Below are positions 17,570-38,040 of a DNA stretch of 58,818 nucleotides, in pieces; the stretch's first letter is position 1; every line of letters begins with the position of its first letter. The stretch lies in the IMG/VR virus record IMGVR_UViG_3300045988_124363; one strand, written 5' to 3'. This DNA is from a virus. A program made the position numbers and the translations under genes. The notes beneath the pieces were generated by a model. It was not told the DNA's origin. It did not search any database and saw only the letters and a list, made by a program, of their open reading frames with translations.

Positions 17570-17745
17570 AAAGAGCGGCAGCCCCCTAAGACAACCGCTC
17601 TAAACGCCCCACAATGAAGGCGGATCGGAAGCATTACTCCGACCGCCTTTATTTTATTACATCCAGCCTTTGAAATCAAGATGCTTTTTCACATTTTGCA
17701 CCGAGTTTTCCACACAAATGAGAGCAAAAAATATTATCATAGCTG

Positions 17746-17774
17746 TTGACGAACTCGCAAATAGGAGTGATAAT
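17746..17774 (+). promoter_or_regulatory. early promoter with embedded operator (copy b)
   Basis: TTGACG, 17-nt spacer (aactcgcaaataggagt), GATAAT. An extra operator-like site cacacaaatgagagc lies at 17711..17725. Confidence 0.55.
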
Positions 17775-17832
17775 ATACTTGTAAGAACGAAGTACGCAAC
17801 ACAACATTGATTATGTTTCGGAGGTATTCACC

Positions 17833-18297
17833 ATGAAGAAGTTTGAAGTCGGCCACGTCTACTTTGACCAGTACGCTTGCGACCATGAGACCATTTCCAC
17901 CATCAAGATCATCAAGCGCACCCCGAAGACGGTCGTCTTTGAGCGCAACGGCAAGACCCGCCGCGCAAAGCTCTACGAGGACGGCAACGGCGAGTATATC
18001 ATTCCCGACCACTACTCCATGGCCTGCGTCTACCGCGCAGAGCGGGAGCTGCTGGACGAAAAGCCGGAGCAGGTCAACGCCCCTGTCGAGCAGGAGCAGC
18101 CCGCCGCAGCGAATAACACCATCCGTTTCCCGGCTGCTGCACAGGCCCCGGCCACCGGCTACGCTGTCGCCCGCACGCTGGTTGACTACACCATGCGCGA
18201 AATGGTGCTTGCCATCTTTGACAAAAGTGACCTGCGGGCAAAGGAGCTGGACTTCCTTGCGGCTCTCACCGACCGCGCCAGCAGCGTGGCCCGATAA
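17833..18297 (+). CDS. hypothetical protein
   Basis: 154-aa ORF with a GGAGG SD. Confidence 0.6.
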   Translation: MKKFEVGHVYFDQYACDHETISTIKIIKRTPKTVVFERNGKTRRAKLYEDGNGEYIIPDHYSMACVYRAERELLDEKPEQVNAPVEQEQPAAANNTIRFPAAAQAPATGYAVARTLVDYTMREMVLAIFDKSDLRAKELDFLAALTDRASSVAR

Positions 18298-18309
18298 TGC
18301 ACATACAGC

Positions 18310-18358
18310 AAGGGGCTGTTGCACAAGGAAGAAAGCCTGTGCAACAGCCCCTTTTCTC
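18310..18358. terminator. bidirectional terminator hairpin
   Basis: Perfect 16-bp stem aaggggctgttgcaca/tgtgcaacagcccctt between convergent genes. Confidence 0.7.
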
Positions 18359-18655
18359 TTACTTTTTCAGCTTGACGGCCGTTCCCATTGAGTATGTATA
18401 GCTGGTTTTCATCCCAAAACCGACGTTCTGAAAACGAACTCCGATTATGGCGTCCGCTCCAACCTTTTCACCTGCGCGTGTCAGATCGGCCACGAGAGCA
18501 GCGTTCACGTTTTCGCCGACGACGGAATAATCACCGTTCCGGCACTTTACCATTTCTTTCATGCTTGGCCCGTCCGCAGCGGTAGCTACCGTCACAAGGC
18601 CGATATATTCGGCAATTTCGATGCCCTGCAAAGTGTCCGTTGTTGTAATGAGCAT
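18359..18655 (-). CDS. YbjQ/UPF0145 (DUF74)-family protein
   Basis: 98 aa: MLITTTDTLQGIEIAEYIGLVTVA...GADAIIGVRFQ...GTAVKLKK, the typical YbjQ-family pattern. Confidence 0.65.
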   Translation of the reverse strand: MLITTTDTLQGIEIAEYIGLVTVATAADGPSMKEMVKCRNGDYSVVGENVNAALVADLTRAGEKVGADAIIGVRFQNVGFGMKTSYTYSMGTAVKLKK

Positions 18656-18695
18656 GATACATTCTCCTGTCTGTGGCGGGCATTTCTGCCCTGTA

Positions 18696-18893
18696 TTATT
18701 CCGCGCCAGCGGCGCGATGCGACTTGATGAAATCGGCCATAGCCTTTTTGATAACCGCATTGGGCGACGTTCCTGCAGCTTTGCAGGCGGCCTTGAACTC
18801 CGCTGCAAATTCCTTGCGAACCTTTGCCCCGACGATCATCATGTTTTCCCTGTCCCATTTCGCGCTGGCTCTTTTCTGCGATTCACAAATCAC
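18696..18893 (-). CDS. ribbon-helix-helix (RHH) DNA-binding protein
   Basis: KRASAKWDRENMMIVGAKVRKEFAAEFKAACKAAGTSPNAVIKKAMADFI fits a beta-strand plus two helices (RHH pattern). The start is uncertain (GTG 18893 or ATG 18842). Confidence 0.5.
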   Translation of the reverse strand: MICESQKRASAKWDRENMMIVGAKVRKEFAAEFKAACKAAGTSPNAVIKKAMADFIKSHRAAGAE

Positions 18894-18921
18894 GAAAAGC
18901 ACCGCCTTTCTTTTGCATAAC

Positions 18922-18950
18922 AGTATAACGCGACGAAAGCCCATTTGCAA
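18922..18950 (-). promoter_or_regulatory. promoter of the minus-strand moron
   Basis: On the minus strand: TTGCAA, 17-nt spacer, TATACT. Confidence 0.55.
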
Positions 18951-19240: not shown

Positions 19241-19269
19241 TTGACAAACTCACAAATGAGAGCGATAAT
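19241..19269 (+). promoter_or_regulatory. early promoter with embedded operator (copy c)
   Basis: TTGACA, 17-nt spacer (aactcacaaatgagagc), GATAAT. Confidence 0.6.
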
Positions 19270-19314
19270 ACAATCACAAGATGATTTACAGCTCACGAAA
19301 GAGAGGAAACAACG

Positions 19315-19587
19315 ATGACAGTTTGCAGCATGAAAGAAGCATGGGAAGCGGCCGACAAGATGTTCCCGACCGACTACCAGATCAGCGAAACCGCAAGCCA
19401 GAACGCTGGCTATCCCATCTACCGCAGCCCTATCAACTTCTATGACACCATCTGCGATCTGGGCGACCGGCTGGAAGTCAACGTCGCTGGCAAGAGCGTG
19501 AACATCTGGGTGGCCGACCCCATCGAGCGGGCGATGGCAAAGATGGGCTTTCATCGCAACGACCGCGGCATTTTCGTAATGGCATAA
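19315..19587 (+). CDS. hypothetical protein
   Basis: 90-aa ORF with an SD; first gene after promoter c. Confidence 0.55.
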   Translation: MTVCSMKEAWEAADKMFPTDYQISETASQNAGYPIYRSPINFYDTICDLGDRLEVNVAGKSVNIWVADPIERAMAKMGFHRNDRGIFVMA

Positions 19588-19601
19588 AGGAGGACAAAAC
19601 A

Positions 19602-20060
19602 ATGCTGGACAAGAACGGAATCGAAATCAAGACCGGGGACATCGTGAGAATCACCGGCGCATACTTCAAAACCGACAACGCGCTCTATTTCGTGGAGCAC
19701 AGCGACGGAGACCCCGATTGGTGCGGCAAAGACCACTGCCTGCTGAAGATCAAGCACAACGGCGAGTTGAGCAAGGCGAAGAACTCCACCTGCTTCTGGC
19801 CGATCATGGTCACGGTCAACGGCTACGAGAAGTACACCACCGCAAAGCTGTGGAACAAAGAACACGCACAGATCGAGATTGTCGAGGGCATCGACAAGGC
19901 CCACATCGCCGAATATTTCCGCGACCAGTCGCAGCAGTGCGACAAGTGGATTGAGCGGTACTCTTGGGACTTTGGCGAGAATAGCCGCTCCGTCAACGAC
20001 CAGAAGCAGTACAAGGCGTTTTATGATTCCGTCGTGGCAAGATTGGAGGGTATGGCATGA
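19602..20060 (+). CDS. hypothetical protein
   Basis: 152-aa ORF with an AGGAGG SD. Confidence 0.6.
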   Translation: MLDKNGIEIKTGDIVRITGAYFKTDNALYFVEHSDGDPDWCGKDHCLLKIKHNGELSKAKNSTCFWPIMVTVNGYEKYTTAKLWNKEHAQIEIVEGIDKAHIAEYFRDQSQQCDKWIERYSWDFGENSRSVNDQKQYKAFYDSVVARLEGMA

Positions 20061-20287
20061 TCTACACCATCGAAAAGCGGCACGTTTTCGGCTGCTATGA
20101 TGGCAGCTATATGCAGAGCCATTATGAAGTCATCGCACACACGCACAGGCTCCCGAATGGCTGCTTGGCATCCACTGGCGCGCTGACCATCCACACCTGC
20201 AAATACAAAATGGAAGCGACGGCATACTGCAAAGCCCACGGCATCGAGCCGCAGCCGCCTTTTATTTCACCCGAAGAACCCGCCTGA
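20057..20287 (+). CDS. hypothetical protein
   Basis: 76-aa ORF with an ATGA overlap onto the upstream gene. Confidence 0.5.
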   Translation: MIYTIEKRHVFGCYDGSYMQSHYEVIAHTHRLPNGCLASTGALTIHTCKYKMEATAYCKAHGIEPQPPFISPEEPA

Positions 20288-20363
20288 CGATGGCTGCATG
20301 GCAGCAGCCGAAACGCTCCACCCGGAGCGTCGCGGGAGCCAACCGCAAGAAAGGAGCATCCAC

Positions 20364-20615
20364 ATGAAAGCGAAAACCTACATTCTGCAGGCCGGGTTCC
20401 TGCCCATCGGTCAGACCGACGTGACAGGCTGGCGCACCTATTCTTTCCACACTGGCCGCGGTGCATACGACAACGCCGTGGCCGCCTACCGCAGCGAGAT
20501 GAACCACAACAAGAACCCGAATGTCAAGTATCGCATCGTCAGCGCACATGACACCACCCGCAAGGACACCTATGTCCCGGTATTTGGCTTTAAGAGCGCA
20601 GCCTGCACCCTGTAA
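20364..20615 (+). CDS. hypothetical protein
   Basis: 83 aa; ATG preceded by AAAGGAG. Confidence 0.5.
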   Translation: MKAKTYILQAGFLPIGQTDVTGWRTYSFHTGRGAYDNAVAAYRSEMNHNKNPNVKYRIVSAHDTTRKDTYVPVFGFKSAACTL

Positions 20616-20667
20616 TTTGCCGGTAACTTGCCGAAAGGCCCGAAATATCATAATAGGCGGTGAAAGA

Positions 20668-20877
20668 TTGAACTATAAATACATCTGGGCGTGGGAAATC
20701 CTCAAAGGAACGACCAGCGCGGACATCGTGCGCGGTATCGTTTCACTTGCCCGGGAAGAAAACGCACCGGCCCGGGCTATCATGCGGCTGCATGATGGCC
20801 GCTGGCTGACTCTCGAAGACCTGTCAAACGAAGAACTTGTGCAACAAATCGAGAATGAAGCAAAAAGCATGATATAA
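20668..20877 (+). CDS. hypothetical protein (TTG start, tentative)
   Basis: 69-aa ORF with weak start signals. Confidence 0.3.
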   Translation: MNYKYIWAWEILKGTTSADIVRGIVSLAREENAPARAIMRLHDGRWLTLEDLSNEELVQQIENEAKSMI

Positions 20878-20883
20878 CGTCAA

Positions 20884-21000
20884 ACCACCACAATCCGATA
20901 CCCTATCCATACATCTGTCAGAATCTGGTGCTGGTACTGGTGGTACTTAAAGGTTATATCAATTTAATCTAAGAAGGAGAACGTAAAGGTTACGATAAAT
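20884..21000 (+). repeat. about 100-bp non-coding direct repeat, copy 1
   Basis: atacatctgtcagaatctggtgctggt...aaaggttatatcaatttaatctaagaaggagaacgtaaaggttacgataaa is matched at 23955..24086. Confidence 0.8.
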
Positions 21001-21012
21001 GGAGAACCCGCA

Positions 21013-21678
21013 ATGAATGACCTGACCATTTTTCAAAACCCTGACTTTGGCCGAATCCGGGGCCTAAAGATCAGCGGTGAGCCTTGGCTTGTTGGGAAAG
21101 ATGTCGCAACCGCCCTTGGCTACAAAAACCCGCAAAAAGCAATTCGAGACCATGTCGATGATGAGGACAAGGGGATGAACGAATTATTCACCCCGGGCGG
21201 AAAGCAAAATTTGCTCATCATCAACGAAAGCGGCCTGTACAGTCTGATGCTGAAAAGCAAGCTCCCCGGTGCGAAGAAGTTCAAACGGTGGGTGACGTCC
21301 GAAGTTCTGCCCAGTATCCGCAAAACTGGAACATACATCACGCCAGCAGCCGCACCCGCAGACGACGCCGTATTTGAAAGGCTCTGGGCCGAATTGGAGC
21401 GGAAGCAGAAGTTCAACGGCTACGTCGGGAAGTTCTGCGACTATTTCGGCTGGAGCCGCCGCTATTACCTGTCCGGGATGTACAACCTGATGAAGCGGGC
21501 AGGCTGCAATGTCGATGCACTGACCCTGCGGATGCAGGCCGCCACCCATGATTATGCAATGTCCACCGCGCAGGCGGTCATCATGGACGAGCAAGCATTT
21601 AGCCTGTTCTGCAAAATCGCAGAATACGGCATCCAGCGAAACCACATCCCCAAAACCATGGAGGAAGCATTTTTATGA
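21013..21678 (+). CDS. antirepressor (Bro-N domain protein)
   Basis: N-terminus FGRIRGLKISGEPWLVGKDVATALGYKNPQKAIRDHVDDEDKG...INESGLYSLMLKSKLPGAKKFKRWVTSEVLPSIRKTG is a typical Bro-N/KilAC antirepressor. Confidence 0.8.
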   Translation: MNDLTIFQNPDFGRIRGLKISGEPWLVGKDVATALGYKNPQKAIRDHVDDEDKGMNELFTPGGKQNLLIINESGLYSLMLKSKLPGAKKFKRWVTSEVLPSIRKTGTYITPAAAPADDAVFERLWAELERKQKFNGYVGKFCDYFGWSRRYYLSGMYNLMKRAGCNVDALTLRMQAATHDYAMSTAQAVIMDEQAFSLFCKIAEYGIQRNHIPKTMEEAFL

Positions 21679-21926
21679 ATAACACCCTGACCGCCTTGAA
21701 CAATTACCTGTTTGAAGAGCTGGAACGCCTGAACGATGATAGCCTGTCCCCGGAGCAGCTGAAGCAGGAGATCGACCGTTCCCGCGCCGTCACGCAGGTG
21801 TCGCAGCAGATCGTGAACAACGGCAAGCTGGCCCTGTCGGCCATCCGCTGCGCCAACGAGTGCTTGGCCCCGAATGAAAAGCTGCCGCCCATGCTGGAGG
21901 TCGAAACCAATGCCCCGAAAGTATAA
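21675..21926 (+). CDS. hypothetical protein
   Basis: 83-aa ORF with an ATGA overlap. Confidence 0.5.
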   Translation: MNNTLTALNNYLFEELERLNDDSLSPEQLKQEIDRSRAVTQVSQQIVNNGKLALSAIRCANECLAPNEKLPPMLEVETNAPKV

Positions 21927-22716
21927 GCCGGAGGTACACGCCTTTATAGCTGCCCACGTCGCCGGGACGACCACACAAGAGCTGGCCCGAATCACAAATG
22001 CAACCTTTGGCACGAACTTCACGGCTGCGTCCATGAAATCCTACAAGGCGAATCACAAGCTGCGCAATGGCCGCGGCACTGGGCAGGTCAAGGGCGCAGC
22101 GACGAAACGCTTTCCGCAGCAGGTCAAGGATTATGTGTTCGCCCACTACAAGGGCACAGGCCACCGCCAGATGTGCGACCAGCTCTTTGAACAGTTCGGC
22201 ATCCAGTACACGCCGGAGCAGATCAAGCAGTATTACGCCCGCCACGGCCTGAACAGCGGTCTGACCGGGTATTTCAAAAAGGGCTGCTGCCCCTATAAGC
22301 CGCAGCCGGGAACACACGCACAGGGCTGTGAGAAAACATGGTTCAAGCCCGGATGCACCCCGCACAACCTGAAACCCATCGGCTACGAGCGCGTCACACA
22401 GGACGGCTATATCGAAGTCAAGGTCAGGATGAAGAAGTCCCGGCCGAACTGCAATGACAACTTTGTGCCAAAGCACCGGCTGATCTGGGAGCAGGCGAAC
22501 GGCCCGCTGCCGCCGGGATATGTCGTCATCTTCAAGGACGGCAACAAGCGAAACTTTGCGCTGGACAACCTTGCAGCCATCACCAAAAAGGAACGGCTGG
22601 ACATGAACCGTCACGATCTGTTCAGCAGCGACCCGCAGGCGACAGAAACCGGCATCCTGCTGGCCCGCCTGCGCACCACCATCCACCAAAAAGAAAAGGA
22701 GATCAAACATGGGTAA
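21910..22716 (+). CDS. HNH (HNH_3-type) homing-like endonuclease
   Basis: C-terminal motif VPKHRLIWEQANGPLPPGYVVIFKDGNKRNFALDNLAAITKKE. Confidence 0.7.
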   Translation: MPRKYKPEVHAFIAAHVAGTTTQELARITNATFGTNFTAASMKSYKANHKLRNGRGTGQVKGAATKRFPQQVKDYVFAHYKGTGHRQMCDQLFEQFGIQYTPEQIKQYYARHGLNSGLTGYFKKGCCPYKPQPGTHAQGCEKTWFKPGCTPHNLKPIGYERVTQDGYIEVKVRMKKSRPNCNDNFVPKHRLIWEQANGPLPPGYVVIFKDGNKRNFALDNLAAITKKERLDMNRHDLFSSDPQATETGILLARLRTTIHQKEKEIKHG

Positions 22717-23191
22717 GCTGGTAGACGCTGAAATCACTCTGAAATATTCCAACGGTCAGTTGACCATCGCATCCACGCCGAACACCATCAAGGGCGACGG
22801 CCTTTTGACATACCTCGACTTGGCCGAATGTGCCATCATCGGGGCCAACTACAAGAACCTGAACGAAGCGATGGACATTGCTGCCGAACACGCATCCGCG
22901 ATCATCGCGGCCACTATGCAGACCGCAGGCGACGAAAAGACCAGCCCGAAGATGGGAGCCATCGTCCACGCCGCGCAGGTTTCACCCTTTTACCTGCAAT
23001 GCGTCATCCAGAAGCCGGACGCGCCTGCATCCAAAGGCAAGTTCTTTGCCGAAGAGGGCAATTTGTACGTCGGTGTCGATAACTCCGACGGCAACGCCTG
23101 GACGGAAGAGTTTTCCGACCGGCAGCAGCTTTTCCTTTGGTTTGCTGGCGCACCTTGCCACGACGCCCACGGGCAGGCCCTCAACGAGTGA
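22709..23191 (+). CDS. hypothetical protein
   Basis: 160-aa ORF. Confidence 0.55.
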   Translation: MGKLVDAEITLKYSNGQLTIASTPNTIKGDGLLTYLDLAECAIIGANYKNLNEAMDIAAEHASAIIAATMQTAGDEKTSPKMGAIVHAAQVSPFYLQCVIQKPDAPASKGKFFAEEGNLYVGVDNSDGNAWTEEFSDRQQLFLWFAGAPCHDAHGQALNE

Positions 23192-23295
23192 TATTCTATC
23201 CATAGCCCCGCAACACGGCGGGCAAATAAAAACGCGGCACAGGAGCCGCCAGACGCCCACCCGGCGGGCAAAAGCCGGGAGAAAGGACTTTCCCC

Positions 23296-23547
23296 ATGGA
23301 AAGCATGATTGACATCCTCTTTGACCAGCTCGTTGACAATGACGCCGCATGGGACACCCAGCATGATAAGGCCACGCAGGACGCGCTTGCTGAACTTTGC
23401 GAAAAGCTCAACCTGCCAACCGTCCACGAAACCAAGCTGGGCGAGCTGATCAGCACCGAAGCCGTGGCACAGGCCCGCGCCGGATTCCGCGCTGGCTTTG
23501 TGGCCGCGATGAAGCTCTGCGAGGAGGTCAAGAACAAGGCTGAGTAA
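23296..23547 (+). CDS. hypothetical protein
   Basis: 83-aa acidic ORF. Confidence 0.5.
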   Translation: MESMIDILFDQLVDNDAAWDTQHDKATQDALAELCEKLNLPTVHETKLGELISTEAVAQARAGFRAGFVAAMKLCEEVKNKAE

Positions 23548-23615
23548 TCAGCCGCCACACCGGGACAAGCTCTGCAAACGTGGGGCTTGCCCTTTGTCTG
23601 AAAGGAGATCACACC

Positions 23616-23942
23616 ATGCCCAACAAACGCGAAGTGGCTTACAACGCCACGCACGGCCGCTGCGCTTACTGCGGCTGTATCGTCAACCCGATGCACTTCT
23701 TTCTGAATCAGGCAAAGCCGGGGCAGCAGGTCGCCGCCTGCCCGGATTGCGCCCGCTTCAAAGGTTCCGACGATCTGGAAACATTTCGCGCCCGCTTGTA
23801 TGACCTGCCGGAGGTTTCCATCCAGTCCCGCCTTGCTCTCAAATATTCGGATTCTATCCTCAACCCGGAGGAGCCTATCAAGGAGGGCTATTACCACGGA
23901 TTCGGCAAAATCTGCTTTTATTTTGAAAATATGGACGAGTAA
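23616..23942 (+). CDS. small HNH/zinc-finger nuclease-like protein
   Basis: AAAGGAG SD. Cys pairs HGRCAYCGC ... ACPDCARFKG resemble the HNH zinc-binding core. Confidence 0.4.
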   Translation: MPNKREVAYNATHGRCAYCGCIVNPMHFFLNQAKPGQQVAACPDCARFKGSDDLETFRARLYDLPEVSIQSRLALKYSDSILNPEEPIKEGYYHGFGKICFYFENMDE

Positions 23943-23954: not shown

Positions 23955-24086
23955 TACCACCACTACGGCCCGACATACGGTATGTGTACCGTATGGATAC
24001 ATCTGCCAGAATCTGGTACTGGTGGTGGTAAAGATTATATTAAACTTAATCTTAGAAGAAGAAACGTAAAGGTTACTATAAAATAA
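23955..24086 (+). repeat. about 100-bp non-coding direct repeat, copy 2 (with an extra 9-bp-stem hairpin at 23974..23995)
   Basis: Aligns with 20884..21000. The hairpin is catacggta-tgtg-taccgtatg. Confidence 0.8.
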
Positions 24087-24124: not shown

Positions 24125-24153
24125 TTGACTTACTCACAAATAAGAGTGATAAT
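24125..24153 (+). promoter_or_regulatory. early promoter with embedded operator (copy d)
   Basis: TTGACT, 17-nt spacer (tactcacaaataagagt), GATAAT. Confidence 0.6.
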
Positions 24154-24200
24154 ATAGTTACAGAATGAATCACAACTCACAACTGCGAAAGGAGAACACT

Positions 24201-24428
24201 ATGAAAGCACTGAAAGAGCTTATGAACCGCCTGACCGCCGAGGGCCGCGACCTGTCCGAGCTGAAGCGCATGATCGACGATCTGGACGCCGCCGGAACCA
24301 TGGGCGAGATCAACTACTACGAGGGCCAGATCTACGGCGTTCTGGTGGGCCTGTCCATCATGGGTTACATCACCCCGGAGGAAGCCGATGAACTTCAGAA
24401 CAGCGTTGAGGAAGATGCTGTTATCTAA
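24201..24428 (+). CDS. small acidic hypothetical protein
   Basis: 75 aa with an AAAGGAG SD. Confidence 0.55.
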   Translation: MKALKELMNRLTAEGRDLSELKRMIDDLDAAGTMGEINYYEGQIYGVLVGLSIMGYITPEEADELQNSVEEDAVI

Positions 24429-24489
24429 GCTGCACACCGGGCAGGGGAACCGCAAAGCCCCCGCAGCCCCGCTTACAGGAGGAAGAACC

Positions 24490-24744
24490 ATGATGACCAA
24501 TCTTTTCATGCTGGCCGGGTACACCCAGTATCAGGCCCAGTGCATTGCACCGTTCGGCTACGTCGTCGCCGCCGGGATTCTGGTGCAGGCCGTCGCCCCG
24601 GCCGTTGACCGCTACATCTACCGCCGCCGCTGGGAAGAAGTCCAGCAGCGGGAAGCGGCAGCGGCAGCAGCCCGCGCCGCTGAACAGCGCAAGGAAGCTC
24701 ACCGCCGCGAGGTGATGAACTTCCTGCTGAACGAGGCCGCCTGA
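24490..24744 (+). CDS. small membrane protein
   Basis: 84 aa with an AGGAGG SD, one TM segment (FGYVVAAGILVQAVAPAV) and an Ala/Arg/Glu-rich tail. Confidence 0.5.
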   Translation: MMTNLFMLAGYTQYQAQCIAPFGYVVAAGILVQAVAPAVDRYIYRRRWEEVQQREAAAAAARAAEQRKEAHRREVMNFLLNEAA

Positions 24745-24840
24745 TGGCCTGATTTTTTATGCCCTTATCGCTCATAAATAAGAGTGAAAAGCACCAAACA
24801 AAATCAAAAAACGCTCACAAACAAAAAAGGAGGTCTGTGA

Positions 24841-25161: not shown

Positions 25162-25166
25162 ACCAC

Positions 25167-26226: not shown

Positions 26227-26228
26227 TT

Positions 26229-28095: not shown

Positions 28096-28098
28096 AAA

Positions 28099-29446: not shown

Positions 29447-29630
29447 ACACTACGCCGACCCGACACCCGCAGCAGCCTTGAAAAACATCTATGCCAAAGA
29501 GGAAGCCGACCGCCTGCGCAAAATCAGCACCATGATGGCAACGCTCAAACAGGCCGCCGATCTTGCAGGGCTAGAAGTCGTGGGCCGCGTCGTTTTCAGG
29601 GACAAGGCCACCGGAAAGGAGTACCGCTGA
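29421..29630 (+). CDS. hypothetical protein
   Basis: 69-aa ORF. Confidence 0.45.
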   Translation: MEQLNRNAEHYADPTPAAALKNIYAKEEADRLRKISTMMATLKQAADLAGLEVVGRVVFRDKATGKEYR

Positions 29631-30208: not shown

Positions 30209-30866
30209 AACCAAACAGGAGCAGGCACGAAGCCTGCGGTATAAACGCCCTGCGCTGGCCTTGATGGGCTGGGAAACAATAACGAGCGAGCTTTCGGAAA
30301 TCCAGTCAGCGTGTGACGATGTTTCTTACAGCATGAGCGCGGATTCGATTTTGGACGCTTTCGACGGCGACGAAGAACGTGCATGGGAATTTCAAATGGC
30401 CTTTGCAGATCTTTCGGCGAAGTGCGAACAGCTATCCAACTGCCTATATGACCATGACGAACTGTCAGAATATTTTGACGACTGCACCGTCGCCCTTATC
30501 GGAAACCGTTACAAATCGATCGGCTACGATGACTACGAGGAAGATTATTACCAGCTCACCAACTACGAAGAAGAGCTTGCACAATCCGAAGCCGGGAAGC
30601 GCGTCTGCCGCTGGACTAAAAAAGATATGCTGACCAACATCGGGCAGTGCATGGGCGTCCTGCTGGCCTTTTATGACCTGCGGCAGCAATACGACTACCT
30701 CAAGACAGAACTTGACATTTTGCGAGGGGAAAACGCCGCTGTGCTGCAAACCATCAAGGAGATTGAAAAGGCCTATGATAGGCAGTCCGATTTGATGGAA
30801 TGGCAGGACGACCCGGAGTTTGAAAAGCTGCTGCGCCTGCTGCCGGATAGAATCTGGATTGAGTAA
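30195..30866 (+). CDS. hypothetical protein
   Basis: 223-aa acidic ORF. Confidence 0.55.
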   Translation: MTKDETKQEQARSLRYKRPALALMGWETITSELSEIQSACDDVSYSMSADSILDAFDGDEERAWEFQMAFADLSAKCEQLSNCLYDHDELSEYFDDCTVALIGNRYKSIGYDDYEEDYYQLTNYEEELAQSEAGKRVCRWTKKDMLTNIGQCMGVLLAFYDLRQQYDYLKTELDILRGENAAVLQTIKEIEKAYDRQSDLMEWQDDPEFEKLLRLLPDRIWIE

Positions 30867-30883
30867 AGGGGGAGATAACATTG

Positions 30884-31192
30884 ATGTATCAAACTGGAAT
30901 CGAACTCAGAACGACATCTTTTGACCTGACGAAACCTTTGGCCGCAATGGCCAAACGTGCCGAGCAGGACGGTTTTGAATTCTACTACACCCGGCACATC
31001 GCCGAGAACGTTTTTGAACTGGAACTGCGCAAGGACTACATCGGCGTCAAAACCAAAGTGCCCGCTGGATACCTGCAAAAGTACATCCCGCACAGTTGCT
31101 TAGAGGGCTTTTTGATGGGCGAATATGACCGCCTGTCCTATATGCTGGGAGCTGTCACCGGCTGCAACAATGCCCCGGAGGACTTGAAATGA
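30884..31192 (+). CDS. hypothetical protein
   Basis: 102-aa ORF. Confidence 0.45.
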   Translation: MYQTGIELRTTSFDLTKPLAAMAKRAEQDGFEFYYTRHIAENVFELELRKDYIGVKTKVPAGYLQKYIPHSCLEGFLMGEYDRLSYMLGAVTGCNNAPEDLK

Positions 31193-33693
31193 CCTACAAA
31201 GAATTTTTGGAAAACAAGATAGACATCGCGCCGCTGTCCGGTATCGAAATTGACCCGTCGGAAATCAACCCGGTATTGAAGCCCCACCAGCGCACCAGTG
31301 TTTTGTGGGCCTTGCGCGGGGGCCGCCGGGGCATCTTTGCCCGGTTTGGCCTTGGCAAGACTGTAATGCAGATCGAATGGTGTCACCAGCTCCAAAAGCA
31401 CGAGGGCGGGCAAACGCTGATCGTGATGCCGCTGAACGTCATGCCCGAATTTCGGGCCGACGCTGTAAACTTGTTGGGGATGCAGGAGCCGCCATACTGC
31501 CGCACCATGGCTGAGGTCAAGGCCAGCGACGCGCCGATCATCCTCACCAACTATGAGCGTATCCGCGATGGCGACATCGACCCGCGCTACTTCACGGCCG
31601 TGTCACTGGACGAAGCGGCCACCCTGCGCAGTTTCGGCAGCAAGACCTATCAGGAGTTCATGCTGAAATTCAAGGGCGTCCGCTACAAGCTCACCAACAC
31701 GGCCACGCCTAGCCCCAACCGATACAAGGAGCTGATACACTATGCAGGCTTCCTTGAAGTCATGGACACCGGGCAGTCCCTCACACGCTTCTTTAAGCGC
31801 GACAGCACAAAAGCAAACAATTTGACGCTTTACCCCGGCCGCGAAAAGGAGTTCTGGATTTGGTGCGCATCGTGGGGCCTGTTCCTGCAGAAGCCCTCTG
31901 ATCTGGGCTTTTCCGATGCAGGATACAGACTGCCGCCGATGAACATTCGCTATCACAAGCTGCCCAGCATCGAGCGGCCAGATGAATTTGACCCGGACGG
32001 CCAAATGAAGCTGGGCCATGATGCCGCAATGGGTCTGACCGACGCCGCAAGGGAAAAGCGTGACAGCATCGAAATCAGGGCAGCAGAGTGCGCCGCCATC
32101 GTAAACGAAAGCCCGGATGAACACTTTGTCATCTGGCATGACCTCGAAGATGAGCGCAAAGCTCTGAAAAAGGCCATCCCCGATATGGTGGACATCTACG
32201 GCAGCATGGAGCTAGAAACCCGCGAGAAGCGCGTCATGGACTTTGCGCAGGGCCGCACCCGACTGTTCGGCACAAAAAAGAGCCTGTCCGGCTCCGGCTG
32301 CAATTTCCAGCGTTTTTGTCACCGGGCAATCTTCATGGGCATTGACTACGAATTCAACGATTTTATTCAGGCGGTGCACAGAATCTACCGCTTTTTGCAG
32401 GATGAGCCGGTTATAATCGACATCCTGTACATGGACACGGAAAGTGAAATCCTGCTGGCCTTGCAGCGCAAGTGGCATCAATACGACGAACTCAGCGAGA
32501 AGATGGAGCAGATTATCAAAAAATACGGCCTTGGCAGCCTTGCCTTGGAATCCCTCAAGAGAACGATAGGATGTGAGCGCGTGGAAATCACCGGAAAGAG
32601 CTATATGGCCATCAACAACGATTGCGTCGAGGAGATCAAGAACTGGGAGACAGACAGCATTGACCTGTATGTGACCAGCATCCCATTTGGCAATCACTAC
32701 GAATACAGCCCCAGCTATAACGACTTTGGCCATAACCCTGACGACAACGCATTCTTTGAGCAGATGAACTATCTGACGCCGGAGCTGCTGCGCACCATCA
32801 AGCCTGGCCGAGTGGCCGCAATCCACGTCAAAGACCGCGTCCAGTTTGGCAACGTCACCGGCATGGGGATGCCGACTATCGAACCTTTTCACGCCGACTG
32901 CATCTCCCACTTTATCAAGCACGGCTTTGCCTATTTCGGCATGATCACCGTCGTGACCGACGTCGTGCGAGAAAATAATCAAACTTACAGATTGGGATGG
33001 TCGGAGCAGTGCAAGGACGGCACCAAGATGGGCGTCGGCTGCCCAGAATACATCTTACTTTTCCGCAAGCTCCCCACAGACCACAGCAAGGGATATGCGG
33101 ACGTCCGCGTCGCAAAGAGCAAGGACGAATACACCCGCGCACAATGGCAGCTCGATGCACACGCATTCTGGCGCAGCAGCGGCGACCGTCCTTTTGGCCG
33201 CGAAGACCTTGAAAAGGTTCCGACATCGAAGCTGCAAAGCCTGTACCGCAAGTTCAGCCGCGAGAACGTCTACTCCTACGACGAGCACGTTAAGCTGGCC
33301 GAAAGTCTGGATAGGGACGGCCGCCTGCCATCCACGTTTATGGTCGTCGCCCCGGGCAGCTGGGATATGACCGTCTGGGACGACATCAACCGTATGAAGA
33401 CCCTGAACACCAGCCAGAGCCAGCGGCGCAAGCAGATGCACGTCTGCCCCTTGCAGATCGACATCGTGGAGCGGCTTATCAACCGATACTCCAACCCCGG
33501 CGATCTTGTGGCTGACCCCTTTGCCGGACTTTTCACCGTTCCGTATGAAGCGGTCAAGATGGGCCGCAGGGGAAAGGGCGTCGAGCTGAACCCGGACTAT
33601 TTCCGCGACGGCGTCGGCTACCTCGAAGCAGCAGACGCCCAGCAGAACGCGCCGACCCTCTTTGACCTGCTGGAAAGCATGGAAGGAGCTTGA
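31189..33693 (+). CDS. SNF2-family helicase fused to an N6/N4 DNA methyltransferase
   Basis: Helicase motifs GLGKT, LDEAA and TATPSPN plus a helicase-C region. Methyltransferase motifs IDLYVTSIPFG (motif IV-like) and DLVADPFAGLFT (motif I, FxGxG). Confidence 0.75.
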   Translation: MTYKEFLENKIDIAPLSGIEIDPSEINPVLKPHQRTSVLWALRGGRRGIFARFGLGKTVMQIEWCHQLQKHEGGQTLIVMPLNVMPEFRADAVNLLGMQEPPYCRTMAEVKASDAPIILTNYERIRDGDIDPRYFTAVSLDEAATLRSFGSKTYQEFMLKFKGVRYKLTNTATPSPNRYKELIHYAGFLEVMDTGQSLTRFFKRDSTKANNLTLYPGREKEFWIWCASWGLFLQKPSDLGFSDAGYRLPPMNIRYHKLPSIERPDEFDPDGQMKLGHDAAMGLTDAAREKRDSIEIRAAECAAIVNESPDEHFVIWHDLEDERKALKKAIPDMVDIYGSMELETREKRVMDFAQGRTRLFGTKKSLSGSGCNFQRFCHRAIFMGIDYEFNDFIQAVHRIYRFLQDEPVIIDILYMDTESEILLALQRKWHQYDELSEKMEQIIKKYGLGSLALESLKRTIGCERVEITGKSYMAINNDCVEEIKNWETDSIDLYVTSIPFGNHYEYSPSYNDFGHNPDDNAFFEQMNYLTPELLRTIKPGRVAAIHVKDRVQFGNVTGMGMPTIEPFHADCISHFIKHGFAYFGMITVVTDVVRENNQTYRLGWSEQCKDGTKMGVGCPEYILLFRKLPTDHSKGYADVRVAKSKDEYTRAQWQLDAHAFWRSSGDRPFGREDLEKVPTSKLQSLYRKFSRENVYSYDEHVKLAESLDRDGRLPSTFMVVAPGSWDMTVWDDINRMKTLNTSQSQRRKQMHVCPLQIDIVERLINRYSNPGDLVADPFAGLFTVPYEAVKMGRRGKGVELNPDYFRDGVGYLEAADAQQNAPTLFDLLESMEGA

Positions 33694-33962
33694 CCATGAG
33701 CGTGATGCCTTATGAACGCGCCGCCGAAATCCTCGACCCGGCCCGGGGCGAAAGATTCACCGACATGGAGCCGGTAAACAAAGCCCTCTATATGGGCCGG
33801 GATGCCCTGCTGCTGCGAATCCCGCGCAGCCCTTACCCGGATGGCGACAAAAATATTCTGGCCTGCCCCAACTGCGGGAGCGGCGAATACCTGCACAATC
33901 AGGATGAAGCCGAGAACACCTGCTGTGGAAAATGCGGGCAGGCTATCAAATGGGAGGACTAA
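33690..33962 (+). CDS. zinc-ribbon protein
   Basis: CPNCGS...CCGKCG. Confidence 0.5.
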   Translation: MTMSVMPYERAAEILDPARGERFTDMEPVNKALYMGRDALLLRIPRSPYPDGDKNILACPNCGSGEYLHNQDEAENTCCGKCGQAIKWED

Positions 33963-34041
33963 CCATGAACAATAAAACCGAAACCCGTCTCTGCCCGTTC
34001 CGAATCACCGTTGCAAGCGGCTGGAAAAATCGGAAGAGCTG

Positions 34042-34050
34042 TGATATAAT
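34042..34050 (+). promoter_or_regulatory. extended -10 promoter (TGaTATAAT)
   Basis: tgATATAAT at 34042..34050; the -35 is weak. Confidence 0.4.
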
Positions 34051-34056: not shown

Positions 34057-34258
34057 ATCAAGCGAAACAGCACGGAAGCCCTTACGATACCAGCTCTTTA
34101 ATTTTGGAAGCGACGAATTACAGAATCGCTCACATTTGTGAGTATATGGTTTGCTCCCGTTATCATGCGGGATGCGATGTTGATAGAATAACCCCCACGA
34201 GTTACAAATGTAAATCAAACTCAGCCGCAAGGTTTAACCGCCTTGCGGCTTTTCTTTT
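34057..34258 (+). ncRNA. candidate about 200-nt non-coding RNA (alternative: 58-aa ORF 33965..34141)
   Basis: A low-GC segment bounded by the promoter above and a strong terminator (stem 34223..34232/34241..34250 plus T-run). It contains operator palindromes at 34129..34142 and 34202..34215. Confidence 0.35.
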
Positions 34259-34279
34259 GCAAAAATAATATCACACCTG

Positions 34280-34308
34280 TTGACTTGCTCACAAATAGAA
34301 GTGATAAT
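34280..34308 (+). promoter_or_regulatory. early promoter with embedded operator (copy e)
   Basis: cacctgTTGACT, 17-nt spacer (tgctcacaaatagaagt), GATAAT. Confidence 0.6.
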
Positions 34309-34359
34309 ACAATCACAGAATGATTTACAAACACACAACGGAGAGTAGAGGGCACAAAA

Positions 34360-34542
34360 ATGATGATTACATACAAAACCAACAGCGCAGTCGATACCAA
34401 GGAATCCGTTGAATGGTATTTTGGAAAATCTTTCGTCGCAAGCTCCACTGCATCCGCAAAGTATGAACACAAGAAGACCGGGAAAAGCATCTTCAAGTTC
34501 TGGCAGGATGGAACCGGTTGCCTCACCATCAAAATCAACTAA
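34360..34542 (+). CDS. hypothetical protein
   Basis: 60-aa ORF after promoter e. Confidence 0.45.
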   Translation: MMITYKTNSAVDTKESVEWYFGKSFVASSTASAKYEHKKTGKSIFKFWQDGTGCLTIKIN

Positions 34543-34556
34543 AAGGGGAAATGGAA

Positions 34557-34721
34557 ATGTTTAAGAAGCTGGCCAAAATGATTTCCGAAATCAAAACCGA
34601 AAACGACCGAGATGCTACATTCTGGCAGATCGACCGTGAGTTTGAGCAGGAGAAGATCTCCGCAGCAGACCACGAGCTGCTTTACAAGCTGGCCGGAATG
34701 GTCGAAGTCGAGGAGGGCTAA
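34557..34721 (+). CDS. hypothetical protein
   Basis: 54-aa ORF with a GGGGA SD. Confidence 0.45.
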   Translation: MFKKLAKMISEIKTENDRDATFWQIDREFEQEKISAADHELLYKLAGMVEVEEG

Positions 34722-34724
34722 AAA

Positions 34725-34949
34725 ATGACTGTCAAGATCGCGCTGAAGAAAAAGTTCAACAAGAACGCCACCACCTGCTTTTATACCGAATACGCAAAGA
34801 GCGTCACCTGCAAGACCATCCAGGCCGCCGAGATCATGGCGATGGGCTTTGACGAAACCGACCCGCACGACCAGTACGTCGTTGTCAAGGACGAGGACGG
34901 AAGCGAAAGCACGTTCCGCAACAGCTACGTTGACGTTTTTATTTCCTGA
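34725..34949 (+). CDS. hypothetical protein
   Basis: 74-aa ORF. Confidence 0.5.
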   Translation: MTVKIALKKKFNKNATTCFYTEYAKSVTCKTIQAAEIMAMGFDETDPHDQYVVVKDEDGSESTFRNSYVDVFIS

Positions 34950-34964
34950 ACAGGAGGGAGCAAC

Positions 34965-35180
34965 ATGAAAACATCTAAGAAAATGGCAAAGGCCCTGCTG
35001 ACCAGCGGCCAGCACCGCACCAAAAAGTACCTCTACACGCTGGGCTACAACATATACGGTCAAGAGATCGTACAACGCACCCAGATCGACAGCGAGGGCC
35101 ACAGAATCGGCAACACATACTCAGCAGGATTTTTCAACGCCTATGACTACCCGGAAGAATGGAGAGAGAAAAATGTTTAA
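34965..35180 (+). CDS. hypothetical protein
   Basis: 71-aa ORF with an AGGAGGGAG SD. Confidence 0.5.
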   Translation: MKTSKKMAKALLTSGQHRTKKYLYTLGYNIYGQEIVQRTQIDSEGHRIGNTYSAGFFNAYDYPEEWREKNV

Positions 35181-35568
35181 TATCACTGATACCGAAAAGC
35201 TGCGGGATGCCTATATCTTCCTGACATTCGCTCAGAACGCCCCCGCCGCTGCACCTGAGAAAAAGGCCAACCGCGAAATCTTTATCACCAACACGAAGCG
35301 GGAAATCCGGGAATACAACAACCGCCCGATCTCCAACACGCGCATTATAAGCGCAGACTACGATGGGCGCCTTGAACTTGTCCGCCTGCCTGACGAGCTG
35401 GACAAGGCGCACAAGGTAGCAGCGGCCGACTGGTTCCGGGACAACTGCTATCTGGAAGCCTACGACAGCCCCTACGACTGCACCGGGCAAGAATTTACAA
35501 CCCATTACAAACTGTTCCGCCGCCGGGGTCACTGGTACGCATATCACAGAGTCAGCAGGGACGTTTAA
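35173..35568 (+). CDS. hypothetical protein
   Basis: 131-aa ORF. Confidence 0.5.
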   Translation: MFNITDTEKLRDAYIFLTFAQNAPAAAPEKKANREIFITNTKREIREYNNRPISNTRIISADYDGRLELVRLPDELDKAHKVAAADWFRDNCYLEAYDSPYDCTGQEFTTHYKLFRRRGHWYAYHRVSRDV

Positions 35569-35582
35569 TACCGAATACAGCA

Positions 35583-35622
35583 AAAAGGCCCAGAACCGCA
35601 GGAAAGCGGCTCCGGGCCTTTT
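35583..35622. terminator. bidirectional terminator between convergent genes (also an attP candidate)
   Basis: 17-bp imperfect inverted arms aaaaggcccagaaccgc/gcggctccgggcctttt around aggaaa. It overlaps the integrase stop codon. Confidence 0.6.
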
Positions 35623-37345
35623 ATATTGCCTTATAAGTGAACTTGTGAGAAATTCCATTCTTGAACGTCAGCATTTCCACATGGCCGTTTCTCATGCGTA
35701 CAGAATCGACGATCGACAGAAAGAACGACCGCAGCACAGACGGCTCCGTACATTCGGCCAACCCCTGAAAATAAATATACTCACGTTCCTGCAACCGCTG
35801 GGACATGATGAAGCTGCTGGCCTGTTCCAAAAAATCGTCATCCGAGAGCGACTGCGCCCACGATTCCGATGTCAGCAGGCCGATGGACTTGTCCTGTTCT
35901 TTCAGATCGTTCATCAAGTCGTTTTTCTTTATCAGGTATTCTTTATCCGACATCTGCTTGTTTGAATACAGGTAGATGTGATCGAGCCGTGCGAGGGCGC
36001 GTTCCGTCTTTCGCTTATCTGCCCGTAGTTTGCGCAGCTCCGGGTCGAGATTCTTTTTAACTGTCGGCTTTTTCAGAAGCACCGAATCAGCGGGGGAGTA
36101 TTCGGCCAGCATTTCATACAGGGCGGCCACGCTGGCCGAATCTATTCCGGCCACGTTCTTGAACGTATCGCCGCGCAGAAGCCGTGCTTCCAGATCAGCG
36201 GGGGATTTTATCTGGTCGAAGCTCTTTTGAGCATTTATCACGTTCAGGATGAAGTTTAGCAGAAATTCGCCTAGCACCGTGTCCGAGGTATATTTCGCAT
36301 TGCAGGTCTTTGTCTTGCGCACGTTCGGGCAGCCATATTTGGCCGACCGATACCCGGACGCATGGAGCTTGCCCGGAGAAGCCGTAAAAGCGGCCCCACA
36401 GCAGGCGCACCATATAAGCCCGGAAAAGATATTGACGTTCTTCTGTGTCGCGCTCCTGCCGGGCGTATTGCGGTATCTGGCGTTTGAATCCAGCATCTTC
36501 TGAACCCTGTCGAATCGTTCCTTGCTCACAAGTGGGGTGTGATGATCTGGTATCACGACCCATTCGGATTCGTCCTTGATGGCCTTGCGCCCCGGTATCT
36601 TGTAATAATTATAGCGGTATGTGCCGATATACCACGGATTCCGAAGAATCGTCCAGACAGACACAGGGGAGAACGGATTGTGCTGGCGTGACACATAGCC
36701 GCGGTCGTTCAGCTCCCGCGCCGTGTGAACCAGCGAATCCGTCTTTTCGTACAAGTCGTACATTTCCAGCACAATGAAACTTTCATCGCCATTGACGGAA
36801 AACGTCTGGGTTTCTTTGTTGTAATCATACCCAAACGGAACCCGGCCGCCATTCCATGTGCCATCGTTCGCCCTGCTGATCATCGTGGCCGTGACGCGCT
36901 CTGCTGTTGTCTTACGCTCCAACTCTGCAAAGATCAGCACCATTTTGAGCATTGCTTCACCCATCGCCGTAGACGTGTCGAATTGCTCATTGCGCGAGAT
37001 AAACGTCACGCCGAGCATCTTCAATTCCTCATACATCTGGGCGAAGTCGAGCAGGTTTCGGCTGATACGGTCAATCTTCCAGACGAGCAGATGGGAGTAC
37101 ATACCATTCCGAATCTGCATCATCATTTTTTGAAAGGCCGGCCGATCAGTATTCTTTCCCGAATAGCCTGCATCCTCAAAAATGGTATAGTCGCTGATGT
37201 TCAAAGCATATTCGCAGTAGCCGACAAGGTCTTTCCGCTGCATGGGCAGGCTGTCACGGTCTATCTGATACGCGGTCGAAACACGCAGGTATATGGCCGC
37301 CCGCTGCGGCTTTTCTTTTGGCGCATCGATTTTCTTCTTTCTCAT
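35621..37345 (-). CDS. large serine recombinase (integrase)
   Basis: N-terminal resolvase catalytic motif AAIYLRVSTAYQ, a recombinase domain, and a zinc-ribbon/coiled-coil C-terminus (CACCGA...C). 574 aa. Confidence 0.9.
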   Translation of the reverse strand: MRKKKIDAPKEKPQRAAIYLRVSTAYQIDRDSLPMQRKDLVGYCEYALNISDYTIFEDAGYSGKNTDRPAFQKMMMQIRNGMYSHLLVWKIDRISRNLLDFAQMYEELKMLGVTFISRNEQFDTSTAMGEAMLKMVLIFAELERKTTAERVTATMISRANDGTWNGGRVPFGYDYNKETQTFSVNGDESFIVLEMYDLYEKTDSLVHTARELNDRGYVSRQHNPFSPVSVWTILRNPWYIGTYRYNYYKIPGRKAIKDESEWVVIPDHHTPLVSKERFDRVQKMLDSNARYRNTPGRSATQKNVNIFSGLIWCACCGAAFTASPGKLHASGYRSAKYGCPNVRKTKTCNAKYTSDTVLGEFLLNFILNVINAQKSFDQIKSPADLEARLLRGDTFKNVAGIDSASVAALYEMLAEYSPADSVLLKKPTVKKNLDPELRKLRADKRKTERALARLDHIYLYSNKQMSDKEYLIKKNDLMNDLKEQDKSIGLLTSESWAQSLSDDDFLEQASSFIMSQRLQEREYIYFQGLAECTEPSVLRSFFLSIVDSVRMRNGHVEMLTFKNGISHKFTYKAI

Positions 37346-37476
37346 TGCTGGGCCTTATCTTTCGGAACGTATTTTGCCAAAATCTGCATGACCTTTTCAC
37401 GATCTTCTACGCTGGCCGCTTGATATGCAGCAAGCATCGTTTGAAGCTCCTGAATGAATTCTTCCTGCGAAACCAT
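37342..37476 (-). CDS. 44-aa hypothetical protein, translationally coupled to the integrase
   Basis: MVSQEEFIQELQTMLAAYQAASVEDREKVMQILAKYVPKDKAQQ. Its stop codon overlaps the integrase ATG (ATGA). Confidence 0.4.
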   Translation of the reverse strand: MVSQEEFIQELQTMLAAYQAASVEDREKVMQILAKYVPKDKAQQ

Positions 37477-37493
37477 AGCACACCTCTTATATT

Positions 37494-37895
37494 TTACTCT
37501 TTCTTTTCGGCATCCACGGCAGGATCGGCGACAGCCGCAACGTGGGTGCGCAAAAAGTCCTTGCACATGGAACGCTTTTCCACCGGGATGGAGCGGTAAA
37601 TCGAAAGCAGCTCTTTTTCGTCAGCGTCCAGCACGTCAAGGTTTTTGCGGCCGTTTGCTTTAAGCCGCTGCTTTTCGGTATCGGTCAAGATCACAATGCC
37701 GTCCCGGCCGTAAACCAGTTCGTCGATACTCATGCCCAGCCGTTCGGCCATGCCCTGAATCATATCCAGATGGGGAGCCTTGCCTTTTTTCAGGCGGGCG
37801 ATGTTGGAACTCGCAAATCCGCTCTCAATAATGAGTCTGCTGGGTGCGATGTCGTGCCGTGCGCAGGCGTCCAAAATGTTTTCGTACAAGCCCAT
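37494..37895 (-). CDS. CI-like repressor (XRE HTH)
   Basis: HTH ILDACARHDIAPSRLIIESGFASSNIARLKKG. Divergent from a Cro-like gene, with a GAGGTG SD before the ATG at 37895. Confidence 0.75.
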   Translation of the reverse strand: MGLYENILDACARHDIAPSRLIIESGFASSNIARLKKGKAPHLDMIQGMAERLGMSIDELVYGRDGIVILTDTEKQRLKANGRKNLDVLDADEKELLSIYRSIPVEKRSMCKDFLRTHVAAVADPAVDAEKKE

Positions 37896-37907
37896 AATAT
37901 AAAACAC

Positions 37908-38040
37908 CTCACAAATTTACTCACAAATGAGAGCAAAAGCTGTTGACTCACTCACAAATGAGAGCTATAATAACAAATGTAAACCGACGAAAGCTCACAA
38001 AGTCGTTTACAAATGTAAGTATACCCTAAATATAGCATAG
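37908..38040. promoter_or_regulatory. lysis-lysogeny switch region: rightward promoter plus multiple operators
   Basis: TTGACT (37943..37948), 17-nt spacer, TATAAT (37966..37971). Operator actcacaaatgagagc at 37919..37934 and 37950..37965, with partial sites at 37908..37919 and 37993..38002. TTACAAATGTAA-type palindromes at 37970..37983 and 38006..38019. Confidence 0.7.

Follow-up and report, generated by a model that had tools for sequence, protein, structure and literature searches.

Can a single phage repressor hold several separate transcription units off by reading one operator that is repeated in their promoters? This question is raised by the 58,818-nucleotide stretch analysed here (IMG/VR virus record IMGVR_UViG_3300045988_124363; hereafter the window, meaning the whole stretch), for which an initial annotation had proposed that a CI-like repressor reads operators placed in several early promoters and would silence accessory operons around the genome. 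The idea of one repressor at several early promoters is supported computationally by the covariation of the operator with the repressor allele and by the repetition of this pattern in the phage MT835491. "Around the genome" was overstated, as all sites lie in one contiguous 20-kb early/accessory arm beside the immunity region. We consider it very probable that a phage-encoded factor uses the motif as its operator, and likely, on the whole, that the complete package holds, with a putative helix-turn-helix (HTH) protein of 133 amino acids (aa), Rep133, as the binder and with the operons silenced in lysogens.

We searched the window for TTGAC-N18-DATAAT and obtained exactly five matches, all on the + strand (17746, 19241, 24125, 34280 and 37943), against 0.04 expected from shuffled sequences; all five cassettes that had been claimed were found at these positions. 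The -35/-10 spacing is 17 nt in every one of the five copies, as also claimed, and the spacers resemble CTCACAAATGAGAG. This 14-mer, allowing up to 3 mismatches, has 15 matches against 5.1 expected. A scan with a position weight matrix (PWM) built from the operator copies revealed nine strong 18-mers, defined by a PWM score above 20 (17709, 17752, 19247, 24131, 24769, 34127 on the - strand, 34286, 37918 and 37949), and matches scoring at least 12 numbered 10 against a shuffle mean of 1.3. All nine strong operators are intergenic and fall within 17.7-38.0 kb, spread over six intergenic regions; five are embedded in promoters and 6/9 are in or next to promoters. The additional promoter-less operators reported by the initial annotation are indeed present at 17711, 24771 and 37920. 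The cassettes (a to f) and the promoter-less operators are as follows.

17376-17404, + strand: cassette f, TTGACT-17-GATAGT, with a degenerate spacer and no operator; heads a 38-aa open reading frame (ORF) at 17453-17569.
17711-17724, + strand: operator a-up, promoter-less, CACACAAATGAGAG; the operator in the cassette a spacer follows 43 bp downstream; covaries with repressor type.
17746-17774, + strand: cassette a, TTGACG-17-GATAAT, spacer operator at 17754-17767; heads the gene at 17833-18297.
19241-19269, + strand: cassette b, TTGACA-17-GATAAT, perfect operator at 19249-19262 and weak partner at 19292-19305; heads the operon at 19315-23942.
24125-24153, + strand: cassette c, TTGACT-17-GATAAT, operator at 24133-24146 and weak partner at 24176-24189; heads the operon at 24201-33962.
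24771-24827, + strand: operator pair c2, promoter-less, inside operon c, with a strong site (24771-24784) and a weak one (24814-24827) 43 bp apart.
34280-34308, + strand: cassette d, TTGACT-17-GATAAT, operator at 34288-34301 with a degenerate right half and weak partner at 34332-34345.
37920-37933, + strand: operator e-up, promoter-less and perfect, 31 bp upstream of the switch spacer operator; a weak half-site lies at 37908-37921.
37943-37971, + strand: switch promoter e (Pe), TTGACT-17-TATAAT, perfect spacer operator at 37951-37964; heads the Cro-like gene and the early lytic operon.

Each cassette promoter is placed in one of the few large intergenic gaps and heads a + strand operon, with a ribosome-binding site and the first gene 55-105 nt downstream (a 17833, b 19315, c 24201, d 34360, e 38078). 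Clear terminators lie upstream of cassettes d and f; that of d is at 34223-34250 and its operon runs from 34360 to 35568. The c2 pair is found downstream of a terminator-like hairpin (24734-24750) and directly upstream of a second Cro/C1-type HTH gene (HTH106), and its strong site covaries with repressor type. We also looked for partners of the strong sites: the best secondary site within +/-120 bp is exactly 43-44 bp off in 5/7 of them (17711/17754, 19249/19292, 24133/24176, 24771/24814 and 34288/34332), and these secondary sites all score at least 9, the 99.9th-percentile score being 3.4. The partner at the switch is 31 bp off. The same operator is therefore present at the switch and at several other transcription units, as in a dispersed-operator regulon.

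The window begins and ends with the same 55 bases (1-55 and 58764-58818), and this exact terminal overlap indicates a complete circular assembly of about 58.76 kb, whose cut point is arbitrary and lies inside the structural gene block. The window is the whole circular genome of an uncultured human-gut temperate phage with a serine integrase. In a codon-usage gene call nearly all genes are on the + strand, with tail and lysis genes to 16844, then an 18-kb arm (17.4-35.6 kb) of mostly small genes without known relatives, then a minus-strand set made of the integrase, a 44-aa ORF and Rep133, and finally a + strand block opening with the 73-aa Cro-like HTH gene at 38078, followed by replication and recombination genes and then by terminase, portal and head genes. 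Contigs near-identical to the window recur in human-gut metagenomes and IMG/VR. No cultured relative was found, as megablast of the immunity region against GenBank phages gave 0 matches, and protein searches returned distant relatives only (portal at most 58% identical, repressor at most 33%). A 15-base pattern searched against the GTDB genome collection proved too unspecific, giving only chance matches among the matches listed, none with a cassette. The immunity region itself has a divergent arrangement, in which the operators at 37920 and 37951 and the promoter Pe separate the following minus-strand genes from the Cro-like gene.

35621-37345, - strand: large serine integrase with Resolvase, Recombinase and Zn_ribbon_recom domains.
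37494-37895, - strand: Rep133, putative immunity repressor of 133 aa, predicted to have a Cro/C1-type HTH of five helices at its N terminus and helices in its C-terminal part, divergent from the switch promoter.
38078-38299, + strand: Cro73, Cro-like HTH protein of 73 aa, first gene of the early lytic operon.

We then asked whether the operator changes with the repressor. The Rep133 family counts 13 proteins in 5.8 billion, with two full-length alleles: type 1, the allele of the window, shows 84-99% identity among its members, and type 2 is 58% identical to type 1. The type-2 neighbours are 77-94% identical to those of the window (integrase 90%, Cro73 85%, a 166-aa regulator 90%, the 44-aa ORF 77%), which sets the repressor apart as the most diverged protein of the immunity region. 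In pattern scans of IMG/VR and of a metagenome collection we recovered the dispersed cassettes of the two lineages. In type-1 contigs the spacers of a, b, c and e, for the sites recovered per contig, have stayed CTCACAAAT(G/A)AGAG-like, and several of these contigs also encode the type-1 repressor. Type-2 contigs carry CTCACAATA(A/G/C)TGAG at six orthologous sites (e, e-up, a-up, b, c and c2), and one 60.3-kb metagenome contig combines the type-2 repressor with type-2 sites e, d and c. In type-2 switch regions the hexamers and the leader are kept, but GCTCACAATAATGAGT and ACTCACAATAGTGAGT replace two copies of ACTCACAAATGAGAGC. When the six sites were compared between the types, a difference was present in 18/18 cases at operator positions 8, 9 and 11, always by the same substitutions, and in 5/66 at the other eleven positions (Fisher p = 4e-14, for three positions picked after the data had been seen). 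Moreover, the three promoter-less sites have no cassette flanks in common, yet their variant switches with the type. The type-2 operator is a perfect palindrome, ACTCAC-AATA-GTGAGT, and the type-1 operator an imperfect one with 5/7 pairs symmetric, a dyad suited to a dimer.

A third lineage repeats the pattern with a different motif. In MT835491, a 59.5-kb human faecal phage, the repressor is 33% identical and has a different recognition helix, and the operator is ACTCA-N6-TGAGT. It occurs as ACTCAAAACTATGAGT in the spacer of the switch promoter, and a distal promoter 9 kb off on the circle (TTGACA-17-TATATA) is flanked by ACTCAATATAGTGAGT and CTCAAAAAATTGAG. Types 1, 2 and 3 each have their own operator variant at both switch and distal sites, so that the motif follows repressor specificity. 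A search for further immunity types with the conserved 166-aa regulator gave the same two lineages only.

The cassettes are alike outside the spacer too, with a common CTGTTGAC and an upstream TTATCA, and judged by these stretches they are paralogous. The leader likeness had been extended by the initial annotation to the switch promoter; ATAATAcAATCACAgAATGAtTTACA is indeed common to the leaders of b, c and d (19241, 24125 and 34280), but the leader at 37943 differs. Likewise, the diverged copy it placed at 17376 has kept the promoter hexamers but has no recognisable operator. Besides carrying operators, the cassettes might perhaps also serve as portable recombination linkers, an additional role that does not exclude repression and that we put forward only tentatively. 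They would wire captured modules into the immunity regulon (off in the lysogen, on at infection), new genes arriving pre-wired to the repressor, and would give homology for shuffling. Several boundaries fit: type-2 relatives lack the entire f module (17363-17684), a duplicated cassette that has captured a 38-aa ORF; type-2 phages have an extra cassette a' with its own gene (positions 1746-1774 of a type-2 contig); and several type-1 relatives have another gene in first place behind cassette b, with the breakpoint of this replacement at 19318, where the cassette leader ends. There is also a precedent in the PeSL (promoter-stem-loop) cassettes of T4-type phages, in which repeats made of a terminator and an early promoter bound modules without known relatives and coincide with indels between close relatives (PMC2839356, PMC4122927), although PeSLs are found in virulent phages and have no repressor operator. 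On the other hand, these are only a handful of events in a small sample, and other breakpoints (18297/18350, 20050/20270) do not fall at cassettes. If the cassettes are portable in this way, dispersing the operators has made a change of immunity specificity depend on concerted change at every cassette, as seen between types 1 and 2, and the phage family would be a natural experiment in the evolution of specificity with a multi-copy operator.

Who reads the operator? We infer that it is Rep133, favoured by its canonical position, by the two strongest operators at the 5' end of its gene, by the top divergence in the immunity region and by weak evidence of a Cro/C1-type HTH, namely an HTH_26 match of 17.9 bits, below the 22-bit Pfam cut-off, the controller protein C.Csp231I as the best solved relative by sequence (E = 8e-4, profile search of PDB sequences), and a low-confidence five-helix model. 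It is improbable that another phage HTH protein is the main reader, either HTH106 as a negatively autoregulated shut-off factor or Cro73 in a turn-down of early promoters later in infection, with Rep133 acting at the switch only or sharing the sites as lambda CI and Cro do.

24841-25161, + strand: HTH106, 106 aa, second Cro/C1-type HTH protein (HTH_26, HTH_31, HTH_3), rival or additional candidate binder.

The HTH matches of HTH106 exceed the Pfam cut-offs and are stronger than those of Rep133, its gene directly follows the promoter-less c2 pair, it differs between types (72% identity), and a homologue adjoins the distal operator-flanked promoter of MT835491. In addition, the predicted recognition helix of Rep133 (helix 3, ASSNIARLK) is the same in both types. 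However, HTH106 belongs to an operon whose own promoter bears an operator and is thus unlikely to maintain lysogeny, and its recognition helix is also nearly constant between types; it could still act as a shut-off factor. Cro73, at 85% identity, shows only background divergence, and its site is more plausibly a conserved palindrome at the Pe start, TTACAAATGTAA. It is the Rep133 gene that the two strongest operators adjoin, as is classic for divergent switches.

Several observations weigh against Rep133 as reader of all these sites, starting with the unchanged helix 3. The specificity change would then have to come from other residues or from indirect readout of the DNA shape of the operator centre, and the assignment rests on position and on exceptional divergence within the immunity region; the unchanged left half-site CTCAC would fit an unchanged helix. 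Divergence alone does not single out Rep133, since some proteins of the accessory arm are as diverged between types as the repressor (51-62%). The AlphaFold2 model of Rep133, with five N-terminal helices, is of low confidence (mean pLDDT 58). Rep133, with its 133 aa and short helical C-terminal part, gave no match to the Peptidase_S24 domain of self-cleaving repressors, and the sole recognisable anti-repressor gene is itself behind a repressed promoter. A consensus scan gave no convincing promoter for the repressor gene, and two further phage HTH proteins, Cro73 and HTH106, are present. As for the operators, site d does not separate the types, one type-2 contig having a type-1-like d spacer, and the palindrome at 34129, together with the adjoining block of the phage attachment site (attP), is identical in types 1 and 2; without covariation, this palindrome behaves unlike the other operators.

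Could the spacers be alike simply as recent duplicates held together by gene conversion, without any binding function? The paralogy of the cassettes past the spacer (CTGTTGAC, the upstream TTATCA and the leaders) and the coming and going of cassette-flanked modules between relatives would agree with this. On the contrary, the cassettes of one genome differ substantially outside the 14-mer, and promoter-less copies that lack cassette flanks carry the same type-specific variant, which makes gene conversion between paralogues a poor explanation. The change is, moreover, limited to three positions, which are shared by all six sites, as are the substitutions, and the distant MT835491 repeats a different operator in the same way. 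From these comparisons, selection to match a lineage-specific trans-acting factor appears to be the better explanation, and we regard spacers without binding function as very improbable.

That the motif is a borrowed site of a host regulator (e.g., SOS or a global repressor) is very improbable as well, as nothing specific favours it beyond the need for some host input to induction of a repressor without cleavage domain, and the motif variant tracks phage lineage and repressor allele. A LexA-box idea was also tried and dropped: a Gram-positive LexA-box-like motif gave 22 matches against 31 expected, none at promoters.

Taking Rep133 as the reader of the operators, we propose the following mechanism. 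Transcription of the early arm (17.4-38 kb, one third of the genome) would start at five promoters of the sigma-A type that are close to consensus (Pa, Pb, Pc, Pd and Pe). The 17-nt spacer of each holds, in exact register, a quasi-palindromic operator of 14-16 bp (CTCAC-N4-GnGAG), and for most of them a second, weaker site lies about 43 bp off, roughly four helical turns. Rep133 would bind these operators, probably as a dimer and with dimer pairs cooperating, and in this way exclude RNA polymerase. In the lysogen, one protein would silence the lytic early operon and four accessory units, which encode an Ant/Bro anti-repressor, HNH nucleases, MazG-like and Lar-like proteins, an SNF2 helicase-methylase and many proteins without known relatives; the promoter-less c2 pair inside operon c would additionally block read-through. 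All promoters would then fire together as immediate-early units, either on infection, before the repressor accumulates, or after induction.

This provides a testable regulatory map for a recurrent family of uncultured gut phages, made up of one small repressor, an operator of 14-16 bp with two naturally occurring specificity variants, five promoters and an attP. On this map the 18-kb arm, with its genes without known relatives and its anti-restriction-like genes, is predicted to be an immediate-early regulon and not to consist of lysogenic-conversion genes, which would change how "accessory" regions of gut prophages are read. Moreover, the paired type-1 and type-2 operator sets are material for studying the evolution of immunity specificity, and might offer orthogonal repressor-promoter pairs for Clostridia-like hosts.

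The repressor gene is found split in several independent metagenome contigs by a 1-nt deletion in an A6 tract (37785-37790, LKKGK codons). These could be repressor-defective (clear-plaque-like) gut variants, or homopolymer assembly errors.

We also considered the second palindrome, TTACAAATGTAA. It has three copies in the window (34202-34213, 37971-37982 and 38007-38018), and 7 matches were counted against 1.8 expected when up to 2 mismatches were allowed. The Pe transcript starts between two of the copies, the third is immediately to the right of attP, and the palindrome is conserved in both types. This placement makes it a candidate site for Cro73. An RNA hairpin in the Pe leader was considered and rejected, as the fold is no better than that of shuffles (z = -0.88), so that a site acting at the DNA level is more likely.

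The perfect 6-2-6 palindrome reported by the initial annotation is present, and it lies beside the attachment site.

34129-34142, no strand assigned: palindrome CTCACATTTGTGAG, perfect 6-2-6, 29 bp left of the attP core.
34171-34184, no strand assigned: attP core, the stretch common to both prophage junctions.

Two kinds of prophage junction were found, one in 7 contigs and the other in 3, and their overlap on the window locates the crossover at about 34171-34184. The integration site is the 3' end of host queA, for which the phage supplies replacement codons (...DAMLIE*). As attP lies within the arm, in the lysogen Pd would be at the left prophage end and Pa-Pc at the right end, and in the circular form the arm is one contiguous piece upstream of the immunity region. 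On the minus strand the palindrome reads CTCAC-AAAT-GTGAG, and type 2 has CACATTTGTGAG as the spacer of its extra cassette; the palindrome may be a universal operator, or an accessory site for attP recombination.

Near attP, a TG-extended promoter (TGGAAA-17-TATAAT, 34022-34050) points at the attachment site and is 100% conserved between lineages, unlike the ~70 nt downstream. In the lysogen its transcripts would leave the prophage at the right end and enter the host DNA that follows queA, possibly offsetting polarity. A small RNA running from this promoter to the terminator at 34250 was considered and found no support, as the stretch between them is not conserved and no Rfam family matched at gathering cut-offs.

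Regarding the gene content of the arm, operon b encodes a Bro-N/Ant anti-repressor and an HNH endonuclease, and operon c encodes HTH106, MazG-like, Lar-like restriction-alleviation and 3D-domain proteins and an 834-aa SNF2 helicase-N6/N4 methylase; the remaining arm proteins were assigned to no family. No defence system was detected, and from its annotations the arm looks like infection-time equipment, not lysogenic conversion.

Further elements were noticed in and next to the arm. In operon b, an 83-aa ORF (21675-21926) matches PHROG 2044, annotated "RNA polymerase beta subunit" (E = 4e-26), and may be a small early protein that binds or modifies RNA polymerase. A minus-strand gene pair within 18359-18950 encodes 98 aa (YbjQ_1 family) and 48 aa (weak ParG/ribbon-helix-helix match), has its own promoter-like site (18950-18922), is flanked by terminators and has no operator; it is a candidate moron expressed in the lysogen, or toxin-antitoxin-like module, within the repressed arm. 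Two stretches of about 100 bp that are 81% identical form a direct repeat, one upstream of the Ant gene (20899-20999), the other upstream of cassette c (23987-24082); the repeat is conserved in relatives and gave no Rfam match. Just before the arm, a candidate RNA of Rfam family DUF3800-VIII (RF03075) was detected at 17182-17246 (+), with 41.8 bits against a gathering score of 40.2, preceded by a near-consensus promoter (TTGACA-17-TAAAAT, 17056-17084) and followed by a bidirectional terminator (~17306-17345). Judging from these signals, 17056-17345 looks like a stand-alone non-coding RNA gene without operator.

How does this system compare with known ones? In lambda, 434 and P22, a Cro/C1-type repressor is divergent from a Cro-like gene, operators occur only at OL and OR, and antitermination extends a single PL transcript. 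The window resembles them in its divergent putative HTH repressor, in the dyad-like operators over the early promoter and in the extra adjacent operators that suggest cooperativity. It differs in that its left arm consists of four units with their own repressed promoters and that its repressor has no S24 autocleavage domain; by analogy, the arrangement is most aptly described as a left arm of the lambda kind, divided into four units with separate repression. In the Streptomyces phage phiC31, the c repressor acts on conserved inverted repeats at many very similar early promoters across the early region. A family of similar early promoters with a repressor-bound inverted repeat is the common feature here; the differences are in host clade, promoter type and repressor.

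Several phages are known in which a single immunity repressor acts at many operators (PMC8546580, PMC9283540, PMC6550527, PMC10516654). P1 C1 has about 22 operators widely dispersed over the genome (PMC8546580), and, as proposed for the window, one repressor holds separate lytic and accessory operons off through repeated promoter operators, with an anti-repressor in the circuit. However, the 17-mer operators of P1 are asymmetric, its C1 does not belong to the small HTH proteins of the Cro/C1 type and its prophage is a plasmid, whereas the sites of the window form quasi-palindromes in the -35/-10 spacer of paralogous cassettes and are limited to one 20-kb arm. L5 and the Cluster A phages have operators and about 30 stoperators, and their motifs track repressor distance (PMC9283540, PMC6550527). 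The window shares with them many sites co-oriented with transcription and a motif that tracks repressor divergence, and the intra-operon pair at 24771 resembles a stoperator. On the contrary, L5 sites are 13 bp long, asymmetric, bound by a monomer, mostly outside promoters, and act on elongation; in the window promoters contain or adjoin most of the sites, the 24771/24814 pair is the only one inside an operon and the motif has a dyad-like form, so the set as a whole is not of the L5 stoperator type.

The SPBRE repeat of SPbeta, read by MrpR, occurs in about ten intergenic promoter regions, and its in silico prediction preceded the discovery of the protein by 24 years (PMC10516654). There too, the repeat silences genes of largely unknown function in a Gram-positive prophage with a serine recombinase, but MrpR has a tyrosine-recombinase fold and the candidate of the window is a 133-aa HTH protein; Rep133 gave no integrase-family match and does not belong with MrpR on this basis. 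In conclusion, the window system works like those of P1, L5, SPbeta and phiC31 but is in none of their protein families, with a small Cro/C1-type candidate and dyad-like sites in the spacers of duplicated cassettes. It overturns nothing, and adds a probable Cro/C1-type example to a design known from these four systems.

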